The translations under genes and the position numbers were made by a program. Shown one piece after another: positions 41,104-64,000 of a stretch of 64,000 nt of DNA (positions within the stretch are counted from its first letter, which is position 1; each line of letters begins with the position of its first letter). The stretch is taken from the NCBI GenBank assembly GCA_010093995.1, contig ML992501.1:2685194-2749193 (forward strand), read 5' to 3'. The notes below the pieces were generated by a model. The model did not search any database and was not told the DNA's origin. It saw only the letters and a list, made by a program, of their open reading frames with translations. The stretch comes from Elsinoe ampelina (lineage: Eukaryota).

Positions 41104-41594
41104 TCAGCTATATATCAAGCTTTGAATACGACGTGTACTACCAGACATGCTTCAGCAGTGATCATCGCATCATGGCCGCCACCGTGGTCAAGCATCACCC
41201 CTGAGATTCAGACGAAGGACAGGTGACTAGAGACCAGGACGAATTCGCCCAGGACAAGTATAACGAACAGGTAAAAGAGGGTGTATGAGATTCAGTAAGT
41301 AATATTTCCCATGATTAGTTGAAAGCATTGGTCGCAGCATTACCAAGAAAGGAGCTGGTCGTCGGGCCAAAAGAGCCGCACTCAAATTTCGTCAAGGCTT
41401 CAGTCAACTTCCCGCCATCAACCTTACCCACAACATACACCACCATCAACCTCACCTACCACCACAACCTCTGCTCCACCATCAAGGCCCCTATCTACCA
41501 CACCGCAGCGCCCTGCGAGTTCTTGGGCACCCTCCTCTCCTGCTCCTCTCCTTCCTCACCACCCTCCCTCCACCCCTCCGTCGTCACCTTGACG

Positions 41595-42582
41595 ATGGAC
41601 ATCATCGTGGATGATGGTCACTGCATCATCCAAACCGACCAGCGAAGATCCTTCCTGGTCTCAATCTCGGGAATTAGGCGTTCCCCCACCCTGAACGCCG
41701 CCTTGTCGTCGCCGGACGCCCATTGGACGGGCGACCTCGTGCTCCTCCATGTGAGGAACGTCGATGCCGTCGCACTCGACCACCTTCTGCGCCGCATGTG
41801 TGGGGATTACCCCGTTCCGGAAGAGGGCTGGACGCCAAGTTCATGCCTGCGCTTGACGCAGGTCTACTGGCACCTCTTCCCGGAGGGGGGATTCTCGTGG
41901 GGCTGGCTCCCCATGCTCCGCAACGTCACCTTGGCGGACTGTGGGGAGCTCGGTCTGGCCATGATGGCTACGGCGGCGGCAAGGGCTCAGCAGGGCCGCT
42001 TTTTTGGGTCGGCGGCGAGGAGGTTGATTTGGCACCACTCCCGCCAAGTGATGGACGGTACGAGCTTTTGGCCGGCCGATGATTGTGTGAGAGGTATGGC
42101 TGACCTTTCTGGTAGTAATTCCTGCGTATACTGATTATCTTACAGCCGGAATCCAAGCTCAAGCTCAACGGACAGAGCAGGCCATCCTGGAAGCAGTGGA
42201 GCCCTTTGTGTCTGGTAGGATCTACCACCTCGACTGCTGCGACGCCGACGTCACCATCGTAAGCGACATTGGCAACATCATCGCTCGGCGTACCACGATG
42301 TCATTTCGAGAGCTGGTCGACGAGATCGGGAGAGCCGAGAAGGACGCGGTCACACAAACTCATTCACCCATTCCACCTACCTGTATCGCGAACAATCTCC
42401 TACTTCCCCCTCACTTCGACGGTACAATCGAACTTTTCAAGGACGTCTTTCAAAACCTGTTCGCCCAACTCGACCGCATCAAAGAAGACTGTCACAACCT
42501 CTGCCCATTCTGCTGTTTGGAGAACAGGCACATCGTTGGTCATGACATTGTCTATTGCGACATTCCCTATCACCGGCGATGA
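41595..42582 (+). CDS. Divergent BTB/POZ-like protein (intron 42094-42145)
   Basis: DGHCIIQT...SFLVS...SPTL...VDAVALDHLL resembles the fungal BTB start. Colinear similarity to the 58101 gene. The phase-1 intron joins the ORFs in frame. Cys/His-rich C-terminus. Confidence 0.6.
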
Positions 42583-57395: not shown

Positions 57396-58100
57396 GAGTG
57401 AGCGATTATCAGGGCACCACGGAGACCAGAACAGGGAATAAGGGGTCAAAGCTCAAGCTGATATTTACGCTGGACTTCACTCGCACACAACCTTTTCTCT
57501 CTTGGTCACCTCAGCGAGCTTCAAAACAGCGTACTACCACGGCGCAGATCTCTCTCTTCTCTTGCTCGCAACAATCATACCAGCTATCAGACCAATAGCA
57601 TCATCAGCAATCAATTTCTGAAGCACAAACGTCCTCTGCATAAGCAAGACACACAAAGATCCAAAGGTTCGTTTGCCTCACTTTCCCATACACAATCAAT
57701 CATACCGGGACCTCTCGGGAGGCAATTACAGCTTCAAATGACTGCAGATGATGAGTCTGCTGCTCATTTGAAGTTGCAGCAAGAGATGGTATAGCAAGCT
57801 CGCCGACGACCTGATCAGCCTGGTGGCAACTTCACTTCCCGACCCAAGACCTACCATATCAACATGGCAGCGACCTTGGTAAGGATCGAGGCGTGATCGA
57901 AGGTCACTATCGACCTAGGCGATTTGGTCGTCGGCTTGTACTGCCTTTTCCACATGACTTTCCACACAATCGAGCTCACAAGGGAGGACAACGCGTCCTT
58001 CAATGGCGAGCCAGAGGATTTGCAACAAACATATGCTAACACATTGCTACAGAGATCCTCCACCTCACCACCTCCCACCTCTCCCTCCTCTCCCGCCACC

Positions 58101-59230
58101 ATGTCCGCCCCCCCCTCCGCCTCCCCCTCCGCCTCCTCCAACCCCCCTCCCGCCCCCACCGCCTCTCTTCCGCCCCCCGCCGCCTCTCCAACTGTCGTCC
58201 GCCTCCCCGGCCCCTCCGACTGCAGTATCACCCTCCCCTGCGGCACCGTCTTCCTGGCCCCCCTCCCGACCCTCCTGCGCATCCCCCTCCTCTCCTCCCT
58301 CTGGCGCGGCCCGCCCTCCTTCACGCGCGCCTCCTCTTACGCCCCCGGCCGCGACTTCCCCCTCCGCGACGTCTCCCCCGCCGCCCTGCGCCGCATCCTC
58401 GCCCGCGCGGCCCGCGAACCCCTCTCCTCCCTCCCCGCCCCCACCCCGGCCTCGCTCCTCGATCTGGCGCGGGCGTACGTCCTGCTCCTCATCAAGGACG
58501 AGCCGACGTGGAGTCTGCGGGGGGCGTTCGCGGCGCTGGACCCGGGCGGGCTCGACGCGTTCGAGCTGGCCACGTGCGCGGAGGCGGCGGCGAGGCTGGG
58601 GTACGGGGCCGAGTTCGGCGCCGCGGTGGGCCGGTTGGTGTGGGTCGAGGGGTGGATGATGTGGGGGAAACAGTGGCGGGGCGGCGTGTTCCCCGAGGGG
58701 TCCATCGCTGGCGGTGAGTCGTTGGCCTTTGCCTGGAGGTTTCTGATCGCGTACTGACGGGCGTAGACATCGTGACCATGTTCTGGGAAGACGCCTGCGC
58801 GCGCGTCGACCAGGCCGTGCGCCAGTGGATGCGGGCCCTCCCTTTGTCGACGTGCGGGTGTGCGTTGCGCTTCTGGAACTCGCGCATGAGCGACCTGGTT
58901 GGTTCCGCGGGACGGTTCGGGCTGGGGTACGTCGTCAGGGAGGCGAGGCGTGTTATGCAGATGGAGATGATGGAGACGTACGTGGTGGATTCGTACGCCG
59001 CGGTGAGGGAAGATCACGTCGCCGCTGGGTGTAAGAATGAGAGCAGGCATGACGTTGAGGCGAGGCTGGAGTATGGACGCAGGAGGAGGTATGCGCTTTC
59101 GTTGTTGGTCGAGGTCGAGAGGGATGTCATGGGGGTTTGTTTGGGGTGTTGGGTGCCGGAGAGTGGGGCGGTCTGTCGTGGGGGACATAGGGGGGTGCAG
59201 TGGGGTGAGAGGAGGCATGGGTTCTGGTAG
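58101..59230 (+). CDS. Divergent BTB/POZ-like protein (intron 58714-58766), paralog of the 41595 gene
   Basis: SDCSITL...VFLA...LRDVSPAALRRIL...TPASLLDLARAY...AAARLG..FGAAVGRLVW aligns with the 41595 protein. Phase-1 intron. CxC and CxxC motifs in exon 2. Confidence 0.62.
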
Positions 59231-59612
59231 TTTTTCTTGGACGAGGGGCGAGGGGGACAAGACGCGTTGTCGGTGTCAAGCAGAGGTGGCGTGGCGGGCT
59301 GGTAGTATTTTGTCGTCGTCGGCATGGCTTTCTGCATAGCGGGAGTCGAGATGTGGTCGCGGTGGCGTGGTTTCTGGTAGTACTTTCTCGTCGGGGGTGT
59401 GGACGCATGAAGCATGGCACGGCGTTGTATTCTTGGTGGCAGGCAATCTGGTAGTACTTTCTCGCTGGCGTGTGGTTTTGAGATGCATGGCACGGCGTCA
59501 CAATCACGGTAGAGGTCAAGCTGGTAGTATTCTCTCGTCGACAATGTAATTACGGCAGACGTGGAGCAACATATTTTCGAACGTGACAGGTGATCTGGTA
59601 GTATTTCTGTAC
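59210..59612 (+). repeat. Periodic array of six CTGGTAGT(A)YT cores spaced 73-75 bp apart with diverged intervening sequence
   Basis: Cores start at 59224, 59299, 59374, 59448, 59521 and 59595 (spacings 75, 75, 74, 73, 74). Confidence 0.9.
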
Positions 59613-59847
59613 AATGCTATATTAAAAAGGTAGTGAGTTGATCACGAGAATAGGCGCTTCCTTGCGTCTGGTGCGCCAGACCTCAATCAAAGTCTATGGC
59701 AATATACCTCAAGGATAGAATTCCCCACACTCTTTTCACACCACATATCCTATTGAACGCCACCTTCGAGTTCCCGACAACCTCCTCAATCGTCATCGTC
59801 AGCCTCAGTAATTGCTTTTCTAGCCTTCGATGTCGCTTGTCGGCAAG

Positions 59848-60354
59848 TCAAGCCCTGTCGACAGCTCTCGATTTCCCTTGACAAGCTAAGCGCACCAGAC
59901 TTAGATGCCTCGAAGGCCCGAACGTCTTCTCACACATGAAGATCTGCGCAGCTCTGCACAGTTTGACTACATTGAAATCGCCTTCCTTCTCGAGGTCGAA
60001 CGAAAGTAGCCACCCTTCGACGACTGGACCGATGGGCTTGAGACAGTCAAACTTGTCGCACAACGCCGCGAAGTCAAGAATAGTTTCGGCGGTATCAAGC
60101 CTTTGACCGTCTAGCTTGAGGTGAAGGCAGCGGAGCATGAGTTCCATCAGACCCTCGTTATCCTCAGACATATGAATGGTGGGTGGATTGACGGTGGACA
60201 AGCTCTGTGATTCTGCAAAGCCGCTTGTGAACATTGCCTTGAAGACTTTTGAGCCATGACTGAGGATGAAGGACGATACGAGGTAAGACCTGGAAGGTTT
60301 GTCGTCTGCCGTGATCACGATGTCACCATGCTCGTGGAGCTTGATGATATCCAT
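59848..60354 (-). CDS. BTB/POZ domain protein A (short; lacks the C-terminal exon of its paralogs, possibly truncated)
   Basis: GDIVI...YLVSSFILSHGSKVFKAMFTSGFAESQ...ED...MLRCLH...LCDKFDC. Confidence 0.75.
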   Translation of the reverse strand: MDIIKLHEHGDIVITADDKPSRSYLVSSFILSHGSKVFKAMFTSGFAESQSLSTVNPPTIHMSEDNEGLMELMLRCLHLKLDGQRLDTAETILDFAALCDKFDCLKPIGPVVEGWLLSFDLEKEGDFNVVKLCRAAQIFMCEKTFGPSRHLSLVRLACQGKSRAVDRA

Positions 60355-60603
60355 TATAGTTGAACTCAACTGAGTATGAAGAAGACGTGACGATCAAGTG
60401 GAGGAAGGTGGATGAGTGGAAGATGAAGAGGAGAGAGTGCAAGAAGACTATTATTTATTATCTTGCTTCAGCATGTGACAGTGCTGCCTGTCAGATTCAC
60501 AGGCCCATGGGATGTGATTGAAACGACATGTCCTTGAATCCCGATGCTGACATCCACCATTCTTTCCACAATGCCGCAAACCTGTGAATAGCTCCGTACT
60601 CCG

Positions 60604-61508
60604 TCATACGAGATCGAGTCCCTGAAAGATATAGCTGTCCGGCTTCAAGGCAGCAAGAGCACGATCTCGTGCATCCTCTAGTGACTTGTAAGTGCCGTAG
60701 ATCCCGTGCTTGATTCCACAAGAAACATGTCGCTTGTTGTCGATGGCATGAATCGCACCACGAACGTATCTATGGCTTCGTCCAGCGGCAAGTCGTCCAG
60801 GTCTTCGAGGAGTTGAACCGCTTGGGAGGGACTCATCGGGGAACGACATTCGCAGCCTTCAGTAGTGTAGACGGCAGTGGAGAGTGCACTGCGAACACTG
60901 CGTTTGATCAAATTCTGGTAGCCGAGGAGAAGTACTACCAGCATCAGTATCAGCGACAGGAGCTCCATGAGATTCTTACGTTGCGTCCCAACGGGCAGCA
61001 GGCTATGCAGTTCTCTGATGGTGGTGACGAAGCAGACTTGGCGTAAAACCAACGCCAGGCTGATAGTTCTGAAGGCTTTCTTGCAGTAAAACGCTTCGGC
61101 GGTGGCCACGAGACGAAACATGTCCTCCAAATCTCGTTTCTTCACTTCGACACCAAGAAGTAGTCCTTCGACGACAGCACTTGCCGCTGCCTCGCACTGA
61201 TATTTCTTGCAGAGCACGGCGAGATCCGCAAAGACTGAAGGTGTCGGTGAAGCGCAATTGGTCATGGTCTTGAGGTGCAGGATCCGTAGCATGAGCTCAG
61301 TTGCATCTGGGCCGTCTTCTGGTAGTTCCACAGTCTTCGGTGCAGCGCTGGACAGTCCTTGAGCTTCGGAAAAATTGCCGGTGAACATAGCCTTGAAGAC
61401 GTCGGAACAATTGGCGAGAATGGCGGAGGATACCAAGTAGCGTTTGGTAGGAGAGTCGCCAGGGATGAGATAGACATCACCGATGCTGCAGAGCTCGATG
61501 GTCTCCAT
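60604..61508 (-). CDS. BTB/POZ domain protein B (intron 60935-60979; apparent 1-nt frameshift at ~60769)
   Basis: GDVYL...YLVSSAILANCSDVFKAMFTGNFSEAQ...LPED...MLRILH...LCKKYQC. Exon 2 has CEC, and CG..H appears only after the frame change. Confidence 0.78.
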
Positions 61509-61936
61509 GTTGGTTGGCTTACCGTGGTGGTGTGAGAGCGCGGTTGAGGACGTGATCATGACACTGAAGGTGACAAGTGGGAGTAAAAGTGAAGAAAACT
61601 GATATGGGTAGAAAAGAGTCTGCAATTTGTCTTGTGAGTGGGGCTTGTCACATGTCAGTCACCGGTCACGTGATGAGCTGTCTGGTAGGTTGGTTCATGT
61701 TTGCTGATGTGGCACAAACAACAGGATATTGAGACTTGACTGACCTGATTCTAAAGACCAACGATAATTCTATGCTGCGTCTCACGCCCTCTTCCCCTTC
61801 CGCCGTCTGTCACTCAGCTTGATCGACCATTGTCACAACCATCCCAGATCTCAAACACAATACCACTGTCCTGCTGTGTCATTCCTCAATTTCGTTGAAA
61901 CCAACGCCCTTCAAGTCGGAGTCCAGGCGGACGAAA

Positions 61937-62799
61937 TTAATGCAAGGCGTGTGATTGTACTTGTCGCGGGCGGGGAAGGGTATCATCTAGCGTGTGCAGT
62001 CCGCAATCGTTGAAGTCCTCTGGATTAAGACTCCTGATGGCATCCTGAGTGCATAAAGCAGCATCATAGGGAGTGACACGATCAATCCTAAGCATGAGAT
62101 CGATTGCTTTGGTCGCATCGAGATTGAAATGGCACTGACAGCGCCTATGCCCCCTCAAAACACTTTCGAAGAAGTACTTCAAGGAGCTTTTCATATCCTG
62201 GTACTCGGCGAAAATCTTGGCTACATATGTCAGATGTTGGTTCTGAGAAGAAAGCGTAAGTACGCACCTGTAATTTCGGCGTCAAATGTGGATGAGTCGG
62301 CGATGAGGCGTCCCATTTGTGCAGCATCCGTCTTGACCACCAGACTGCTGATCAATTCCACCAGCCGTGATTCATTCTGGGAGACTCTGGCAATGTTGGC
62401 GAGCTCGATCATCTCATCGTATTTTGACGTGAGGGGAATCTGAATCGATACCCAGTGCTCGAGAGTCGGGCGCATAGCCTCTAGGCAGTCGTACTTGTCA
62501 CAGAGTGTGACGAAGTCGTGACCCTCGTCAAGCCGCATAAGATGCCGCGAGGGATCAGTCCTGAAATGCGACACACGTAATAGAATCTCCAGTGACCTTT
62601 GCTTGTCTTCCTCAAGTGTGATTGTTTTTGGTTCAGTCTTGGATAGACCTTGGCCTTCTGTAAAACGGTTGGAAAACATGGCTCTAAAAACTGGGGAGAT
62701 GTTGCTGAGGATCACAGATGAGACTAGGAATCTCTTCTCACTACCAGACTCGGCGGTCAAGTAGACATCGCCGTCCATGCAGAGTTGGATCATCTCCAT
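61937..62799 (-). CDS. BTB/POZ domain protein C (intron 62221-62267)
   Basis: GDVYL...FLVSSVILSNISPVFRAMFSNRFTEGQ...LEED...LCDKYDC. Exon 2 has CQC...CGLH. Confidence 0.8.
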
Positions 62800-63199
62800 G
62801 CTGAGACTGAGATCTACTGTATCAATCCCGTGGTGGCGTCGACGCTGGTAGTGGTTTCGCAGGTTAAATTGTAAGATGGTGGGACAGAATGAATGTGGTG
62901 AATGAGAAAGGTTTCGCAAATGCAATAGGAGTGGGGTCGAGCATGTGAATCAGGCTTGTCACGTGATCTGCCTGCATGAATGGAATGTTTCATTTTTCCC
63001 GCGAGGTTACGTATCGAGGTCATGAAGCTGAGTCGGAAGAGTGGGATAATAGATTTTGACTGACCTAAGCATTCGTTGTAGTTCTCCTCGTCCAATCAGC
63101 TGCGCCTGTCCGATGCCTCCCTGTGAACATGTCCTGCGCTGATGTATGATCGAATCTGTCTATCCCGCCAACGCCGCTGATACAGTACGCCGCCAAGGA

Positions 63200-64000
63200 T
63201 CATGCCTTTAGGTCCTCCCACTTCAGCGGCCGGCTGACCTCGATGAGACTGAGGGTCATCAAGCTGATATTCATGATCTGATCCAGGCGACGATCATTTG
63301 GTGAATGCATTGACTTGCCACATTCTTTTATCATCTGGTTGTTGACTCCTCTCAGATACTGTAGCGCACTCGTGACACTCTCTTTGACCGAGATCGTGTC
63401 AATCTTATGGTAGAGCATAGCGATGTCCTCGGCTTTGATTTTGTAATGACACGTGCATCTCTTTGGGCCATCGACGACGTTTTTGAGAGCATCTTTGATG
63501 GCGTTCCTTTTCATCTCGCGAAGTTTGTGCACAGTCACTACCAGTATTAGTGTGTATATCTTCTGAACCCTTGGTAATCATCACCCAGCATCTTTGTTGT
63601 TAGAAGGCTGTCTTCACTCATAACATGATCCAACACAGGCTCAGCCGATTTGAATACCATCATGTGTATCAAGGTCTCGGAGTGGGCAGTCTCGTTGAAG
63701 AATAGCGCCATGTCCAGGAGATGCTCCATCTCGGCGAACACGAGATCAGGGGCGGTCAAATGTAAGGCGATCCACATTTCGGCGACGAATCCGACGGCGG
63801 CCGCGCAATCGTATTTGTCACAGACGACAGTGAAGCCACTACCAGCCGTGATTGGCATGAAGCGCTTGTTGGAACCAATCTTGAGGTGTAGAACGCGGAG
63901 TAAGATCTCCATGCTGGTAGGATCATCGTCCGGACATGTGAAGCTTTTGGGCGAGGCTGCTGAGATTCTTTCGTCTGCATTCCAGCGTTCCGAGAACGTC
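63200..64000 (-). CDS. BTB/POZ domain protein D (5' end beyond the window; intron 63538-63584)
   Basis: CPDDDPTSMEILLRVLH...VCDKYDC. Exon 2 has CTC...CGKSMH. Confidence 0.78.

Follow-up and report, generated by a model that had tools for sequence, protein, structure and literature searches.

Why should a 20-nucleotide (nt) sequence recur six times, at nearly constant spacing, at the end of a gene of the fungus Elsinoe ampelina, when the sequence between its copies is at a random level of similarity? The question is raised by an array on the plus strand of a 64-kb stretch of DNA (the window), where it occupies the region 59210-59680. A first-pass annotation of this DNA had noticed the periodicity, which resembles that of clustered regularly interspaced short palindromic repeats (CRISPR), and had proposed selection on the repeated motif and its spacing. 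The array is a lineage-specific tandem-repeat 3' untranslated region (3' UTR) with an unusually well-kept core. Both its 3' UTR nature and its likely derivation from the coding end of the gene are points that the annotation had missed. Our account as a whole, in which this UTR array was born from the end of the gene and its core is selected as a repeated linear cis-element, is offered tentatively, and we would give it slightly less than an even chance of being right.

Layout and transcription of the array

Direct reading of the sequence finds six cores starting with CTGGTAG, at 59224, 59299, 59374, 59448, 59521, and 59595, with start-to-start distances of 75, 75, 74, 73, and 74 nt, all as originally described. 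A partial seventh core (CTGGT at 59668) follows 73 nt further on and can be read directly within the small hairpin TCTGG-TGCG-CCAGA (59667-59680). The first core does hold the stop codon of the gene starting at 58101 (hereafter the host gene), whose exon 2 frame is ended by TAG 59228-59230. The units (u1 to u6) are given below, together with the RNA contigs that cross them (runs X3, X4, and X6, see below).

59209-59283, plus strand: unit 1; core 59224-59243, which holds the real stop codon; crossed by contigs 59173-59384 (X4) and 59221-59418 (X6)
59284-59359, plus strand: unit 2; core 59299-59318; TAG at 59303 shares the frame of the real stop codon, with no other stop in between
59360-59433, plus strand: unit 3; core 59374-59393; its TAG at 59378 is again in the frame of the stop codon
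59434-59506, plus strand: unit 4; core 59448-59467; its nearest relative is unit 3
59507-59580, plus strand: unit 5; core 59521-59540; contig 59257-59564 (X3) covers cores 2-5 without differences
59581-59654, plus strand: unit 6; core 59595-59614, of which the first 9 bases and a few more are kept; AT-richer
59655-59680, plus strand: partial unit 7; keeps the phase, with CTGGT at 59668, 73 nt downstream of core 6, by direct reading

The 20-nt consensus of the core, CTGGTAGTAYTYTCTCGTCG, is present without mismatch at 59374 and 59521, with one mismatch at 59299, and with two at 59448. At ≤3 mismatches it has four matches in the window, and four or more matches were reached in none of 100 shuffles. 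The cores at 59224 and 59595 keep their first 8-9 bases and, beyond these, scattered positions only. The 9-mer CTGGTAGTA occurs nine times in the window, compared with 0.15 expected, and five of these nine occurrences lie in the array. The word GGTGGCGTGG, which had been said often to precede the core, is exact upstream of two cores only (59285 and 59361) and partial upstream of two others. Words shared by neighbouring units were seen as reported: GTGTGG and GCATGGCACGGCGT are common to units 3 and 4, and ACAATG is common to units 5 and 6. Tandem Repeats Finder, with a period of 73, sees just 2.3 copies (59374-59540), which indicates that most units are alike in part only.

The array takes up most of the 617 nt separating the stop codons of two convergent genes (59230 and 59848). 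A perfect 11-nt inverted repeat (GTCTGGTGCGC at 59666-59676 and GCGCACCAGAC at 59890-59900) flanks the 3' end of the convergent BTB gene, and its left arm overlaps the partial seventh core.

Transcription was assessed using RNA contigs from four runs (X3, X4, X5, and X6), which show neither strand nor RNA ends. One contig each in X3, X4, and X5 contains the joint 58712/58766, in which the host gene's 53-nt intron is skipped. Contigs that follow the window colinearly and with zero differences extend over 59173-59384 (X4), 59221-59418 (X6), 59278-59461 (X5), and 59257-59564 (X3). The first two cross the stop codon into the array, that of X4 reaching unit 3, so that the array lies downstream of the stop codon and is continuous with the coding sequence in contigs. 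Contigs of 184-310 nt pass unbroken through several units. No single contig spans the full array; the overlaps are identical to the window in all four runs. X3 has nothing beyond 59564, and 59660-59803 is uncovered in all four runs, gaps that by themselves prove nothing. Within 59210-59680, where cores 1-5 are covered, there are no splice joints in the contigs of the four runs. The other joints found in contigs are 60934/60980 (X3) and 58136/58421 (X6), the latter with a 22-letter side. Runs with the spliced intron thus contain contigs colinear from the coding end through cores 1-5, and these are most simply understood if the array forms the 3' UTR of the expressed and spliced gene 58101-59230.

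Conservation of cores and spacers

An ungapped, in-register comparison of the units gives pairwise identities of 0.55-0.90 for the 20-nt core versus 0.18-0.37 for the following 38 nt. In a stack of the six units, the top-scoring 20-column window is exactly the core, and its score was reached in none of 100000 column permutations. Spacer columns, on the other hand, have a mean majority count of 2.89, compared with 2.98 for random bases of the same composition. Cores 2-5 differ at 5 of 20 positions, while their spacers are at random level. When gaps were allowed, two of the 15 spacer pairs were clearly above shuffles (u3/u4 with a z-score of 5.85, and u2/u5 with 2.87), the other 13 not clearly so. 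From this we infer that change has been several times slower in the 20-nt core than in the ∼54 nt that separate one core from the next. The proposal that the core is kept far better than the spacers, at a tight period of 73-75 nt, is therefore borne out by the identity contrast, the permutation test, and the unit lengths. Uniform decay of core and spacer, which had been set beforehand as the outcome that would speak against it, is not what is seen, because the core tops the permutations and the spacers are random: the alignment shows unequal decay instead.

Homology over the whole length of a unit is clear for u3/u4 alone. In the alignment of this youngest pair, 53 of 74 columns are identical (72%), with 9 transitions, 11 transversions, and 1 gap column, and the differences are grouped in blocks with identical blocks between them. 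Small differences within the cores track the kinship of the spacers, with TAC in u3 and u4, and TAT in u2, u5, and u6. Repeat-induced point mutation (RIP), which is transition-only, was considered as a cause of spacer divergence and is ruled out because transversions are at least as numerous as transitions in 12 of 15 unit pairs.

The host gene and the origin of the units

The sole relative found for the host protein is a 333-residue hypothetical protein of Elsinoe batatas (P0001, gene KVT40_003507, hereafter the ortholog). It was the single match among 1.84 billion representatives and again the single match among 464 candidates in a 5.8-billion-cluster search restricted to longer proteins. 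The features of the host gene that bear on the origin of the array are as follows.

58101-58713, plus strand: exon 1; ATG at 58101, open frame, very GC-rich; 90% identical to residues 2-200 of the ortholog
58714-58766, plus strand: intron of 53 nt, GT..AG; joint in one contig each of X3, X4, and X5
58767-59230, plus strand: exon 2; stop codon TAG 59228-59230 inside core 1; 84% identical to the ortholog up to ...EYGRRRR
59017-59075, plus strand: conserved coding segment that aligns over the whole repeat period (CGTCG ... CTGG-AGTAT); probable source of the units
59083-59122, plus strand: degenerate unit in the coding tail, in the register and frame of unit 1, with TTG where unit 1 has TAG
59090-59227, plus strand: last 46 codons, without detectable likeness to the 25-residue tail of the ortholog

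Across the splice the ortholog reads ...SIAGDIVTMF, in agreement with the removal of the 53-nt intron. The match between the two proteins stops at ...EYGRRKR, and the HMMER match ends at query residue 111. Beyond this point, a local alignment of the host tail (46 residues) with the tail of the ortholog (25 residues) scores below the shuffle mean (p 0.92).

The alignment of 59017-59075 runs from CGTCG, with which a core ends, to CTGG-AGTAT, which matches the following core. Against the junctions between units this segment scores 19.1 for u3 to u4 (shuffle p 0.0015), 17.0 for u4 to u5 (p 0.003), and 17.3 for u1 to u2 (p 0.034), scores that are reached by 1, 9, and 13, respectively, of 2337 other 81-nt windows. 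The degenerate unit at 59083-59122 agrees with 59209-59248 in 28 of 40 positions (p 0.007 and 0.04 versus shuffles, in two tests). The likeness of the units to the coding end is weak and colinear, and it favours a common descent of the units. Because the ortholog diverges after ...EYGRRKR, and because 59017-59075 aligns over the whole unit, the array probably arose when the 3' end of the gene itself was duplicated in tandem, an origin that this moderate evidence supports but does not prove. The same duplication may also have given this species a new protein tail, for which the evidence is likewise moderate.

The host gene had been labelled a BTB gene, and this label is a lead only. Pfam finds no family in the host protein at E up to 1, hhalign of the protein versus four BTB neighbours gives a probability of 0.2%, and a BLASTP match is in register but weak (E 0.23). 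An AlphaFold model made from a two-sequence input has a mean predicted local distance difference test score (pLDDT) of 42.5 and is unusable. On the other hand, among the Atlas neighbours of the ortholog, by language-model features, 26 of 30 feature matches are in a BTB set (score 0.95), and the predicted structure of the ortholog matches fungal BTB clusters with template modeling scores of 0.58 and 0.54. These neighbours suggest that the host gene may be BTB-like. The host gene is a GC island (58000-58700, 75-77% GC versus ∼50% around it). Its GC skew changes from -0.65 to +0.60 in the middle of the gene, the upstream half of the coding strand being rich in C and the downstream half rich in G.

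What the core may be, and competing explanations

The core is most likely, we infer, a repeated linear cis-element of the mRNA. It consists of UGGUAGUA followed by a pyrimidine run, YUYUCUCGUCG (where Y is a pyrimidine). No RNA structure was detected: as assessed by folding versus shuffles, the whole array has a z-score of +1.73 and the six units have z-scores of -0.25 to +1.96, none folding better than shuffles. This absence of structure suits a linear binding motif. Selection on such an element fits a location that is transcribed and unstructured, a pattern of pyrimidine transitions (Y at two positions), and the presence of GUAG in every copy. The cores would most likely be kept because selection acts on a single-stranded cis-element that is repeated along the mRNA, or along the nascent transcript. 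Each core would be one putative binding site, so that one RNA-binding or 3'-end/termination factor would find six sites in the UTR. This factor could govern the fate of the mRNA or the formation of its 3' end ahead of the convergent neighbour.

With GUAG in every core, the Nrd1/Seb1 class is a candidate for such a factor. According to published work, Seb1 binds (A/U)GUA(A/G), with GUAG and UGUA as top tetramers that are clustered at 3' ends, and motifs of this type act 50-100 nt downstream of the cleavage site (PMC4949328). As in these clusters, each core of the array has a GUAG and then a second GUA, and several copies stand at a 3' end facing a convergent gene. In contrast to them, the flanks differ, the conserved block spans 20 nt instead of 4-5, and RNA contigs include cores 1-5. 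The likeness is not a claim of membership.

A second likeness, of layout only and likewise not of membership, is to Xist Repeat A. As described (bioRxiv 10.1101/2025.05.21.655143), this is a ∼450-nt domain on an RNA polymerase II transcript, with tandem monomers made of a degenerate spacer and a linearly conserved core. Its motifs are single-stranded and protein-bound, and its cores are conserved across eutherians and mutation-tested. The array similarly has tandem monomers with a kept core and a degenerate spacer on a transcript. However, whereas Repeat A belongs to a mammalian long noncoding RNA and has 50-nt monomers with a GC-rich core and a U-rich spacer, the monomers of the array are 74 nt long, with a U-rich core and a G-rich spacer, and are known from the sequence of one species.

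If the cores are a real signal, a regulatory 3' UTR would have been built from scratch out of the coding end of a gene. It would provide a six-site handle for finding a fungal RNA-binding or 3'-end factor, and it may show how lineage-restricted genes of a plant pathogen gain tails and controls.

Several points weigh against this account. Cores 1 and 6 are much weaker copies than the others. The conservation statistics count related copies, six units with a common history. The match to Seb1 amounts to 4 nt, GUAG; it is preceded by G, and Y follows the second GUA, flanks that are unlike the published Seb1 consensus. The contigs are strandless, and antisense RNA of the array would be compatible with them. 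The cores are seen in one species, the ortholog being known as a protein, not as DNA. As to the origin of the units, two of the five junctions are not set apart from shuffles in the comparison with 59017-59075 (u2 to u3, p 0.355; u5 to u6, p 0.433). An RNA binding site gives no reason for a fixed 74-nt spacing. Finally, the core is not found elsewhere in the 64-kb window at ≤3 mismatches. A scan of metagenomes for three copies of CTGGTAGTA at 71-77-nt spacing returned 99 stretches; in none of the 98 loci inspected was the extended core found within 4 substitutions of 20, these loci being collagen-like and other coding repeats, CRISPR-like arrays, and unrelated repeats. There is no sign of a wider regulon because the core is absent both elsewhere in the window and from these 98 loci. 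A blastn comparison of 59080-59700 with the rest of the window gives nothing below E 0.006, the top rows being G-rich low-complexity sequence.

The searches also returned some minor observations. Outside the array, exact copies of CTGGTAGTA are found at 41136 (minus strand), 42109 (plus), 42591 (minus), and 60933 (minus). The copy at 60933 forms the acceptor of an intron of 45 nt in a BTB neighbour (contig joint 60934/60980, X3), and the copy at 42109 falls within what is likely an intron of gene 41319-42582, a weak paralogue of the host gene. The word might be an acceptor signal specific to this gene family. In the leader of another BTB paralogue, 62829-62858 agrees with the pre-core word and core in 23 of 30 positions, the internal spacing being the same, but the match is at chance level (E 0.83). 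Four metagenome loci (L006, L030, L050, and L063) carry AATTTTTCCTAGCTGGTAGTAGGATTGCGAC at 73-86-nt periods, in up to 27 copies; they look like one CRISPR-repeat family, unrelated to the array. By titles and abstracts, the papers matched on minisatellites in untranslated regions of filamentous fungi describe no such array, and those on the Elsinoe ampelina genome, among the matches listed, do not treat the locus.

The strongest competitor is a functionless 3'-UTR minisatellite, in which the duplication is real and the core is kept by a non-selective cause. We regard it as a serious possibility, though one that falls well short of probable. Conversion or unequal-exchange tracts centred on the core, a lower mutability of the core than of the G-rich, slippage-prone spacers, or simply the small number of six related copies could be that cause, and as explanations of the kept core they are together nearly as likely as a selected RNA site. 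Like minisatellites in the 3' ends of genes, the array has head-to-tail units of constant length (75, 75, 74, 73, 74, and 73 nt), of which u3 and u4 are 72% alike, its end units (1, 6, and 7) are decaying, and its origin is apparently a local duplication. It stands at one locus only in the window, has no relatives in the metagenomes and no RNA structure, and lies beside a protein tail that is itself fast-changing. That core differences follow spacer kinship is, moreover, what simple descent predicts. What such a minisatellite accounts for less well is the large contrast between random-level spacers and 5 of 20 differing positions in cores 2-5, with most units sharing the 20-nt core only. Nor does it readily explain why the differences between u3 and u4 fall in blocks between identical blocks, why the substitution pattern excludes RIP, or why unit length is held at 73-75 nt despite saturated spacers. 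If there is no signal, what remains is an ordinary minisatellite specific to the lineage; the main gains would then be that the gene model has been corrected and that CRISPR-like periodicity is known to arise in eukaryotic UTRs, which calls for caution.

A bolder form of our preferred account, which we think unlikely, is that duplication turned the stop-codon region into a multivalent platform. Its 6-7 phased single-stranded 20-nt elements, with both motif and 74-nt spacing under selection, would jointly bind or titrate a single factor for RNA binding or termination, or a small RNA. If true, the core-plus-spacer layout of Xist Repeat A would have a counterpart in a fungal 3' UTR.

The tight 73-75-nt period, unexplained by an RNA site, keeps alive a reading at the level of DNA, in which the cores would be phased protein-binding sites between convergent genes, serving to terminate transcription as a roadblock, to position nucleosomes, or as an array of recombination hotspots. 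The 74-bp period corresponds to about seven helical turns, its tightness over six intervals is better explained by a DNA than by an RNA site, and the array occupies most of the gap between the convergent stop codons at 59230 and 59848. Contigs, however, run through cores 1-5 with no break recurring at the cores, which indicates that the cores are not efficient transcription stops, and no known factor motif was matched by any tool. On balance this reading is improbable. A scan of 59000-60000 for bacterial promoters and terminators returned 0 sites, a result not relevant to a fungus.

Very improbable is that the units are read as protein (25-residue modules made by read-through) or as a short intron plus mini-exon, with G before GTAGTA as donor or CTGGTAG as acceptor. 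The TAGs at 59228, 59303, and 59378 do lie in one frame, with open stretches of 24 codons between them that end in ..GW or ..FW. The core word CTGGTAG equals the verified acceptor word of the 45-nt intron in the neighbouring BTB gene, where it is also followed by TA (60934/60980, X3), and the same acceptor-like sequence occurs in the likely intron of gene 41319-42582. The donor-like word, in contrast, is non-consensus, GTAGTA lacking the G that is usual at donor position 5 of fungal introns, and the match of the core to the neighbour's acceptor has an E of 2.2 within the window. There is no joint inside the array in four runs, with contigs colinear over cores 1-5, and the frame is lost after unit 3 (periods of 74, 73, and 74), TGA following 9 codons after the third TAG.

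Hardly credible, finally, is a precursor of ∼74-nt small RNAs or a multi-site decoy for one small RNA: the unit size is within the range of small structured RNAs, the core is about as long as a small-RNA target, and it recurs six times on one transcript, but the array has no Rfam family at E up to 10 (two chance-level rows lie outside it), ARAGORN finds 0 tRNA-like genes, and several units are spanned without a break by contigs of 184-310 nt. Because neither the array nor its units fold better than shuffles, a row of structured small RNAs is likewise unsupported, and the earlier suggestion of a processed multi-unit noncoding RNA finds no support in these same results or in the contigs, which are colinear with the mRNA.

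The array shares with CRISPR arrays a short repeat at a regular period with dissimilar sequence between copies, and the caution of the first-pass annotation in not calling it CRISPR was justified. A CRISPR array is ruled out. CRISPR hosts are prokaryotes or viruses, whereas here 53- and 45-nt GT..AG introns are spliced and the nearest protein is fungal. CRISPR repeats are near-identical, whereas here core identity is 0.55-0.90, the neighbouring spacers of u3 and u4 are homologous (z 5.85), and the array is part of an mRNA. There are no cas genes in the open reading frames (ORFs) inspected; a whole-window cas scan was not made.

Two minus-strand ORFs that run through the array and exon 2 (200 aa, 59014-59616; 312 aa, 58337-59275) were also considered. 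They show no Pfam family and are probably by-products of the G-rich plus strand. The gene convergent with the host gene is the first in a row of BTB-type genes:

59848-60393, minus strand: convergent BTB-domain gene (Pfam BTB, E 6.1e-05); its frame stops at 59848-59850

This gene stops soon after its BTB domain and may be truncated or hold an unseen intron. The next minus-strand neighbour, 60678-61658, also carries a Pfam BTB domain. In all, the minus strand of 59848-64000 holds at least four BTB-type paralogues (59848-60393, 60678-61658, 62230-62949, and 63547 to the window end), which are 25-38% identical to each other.

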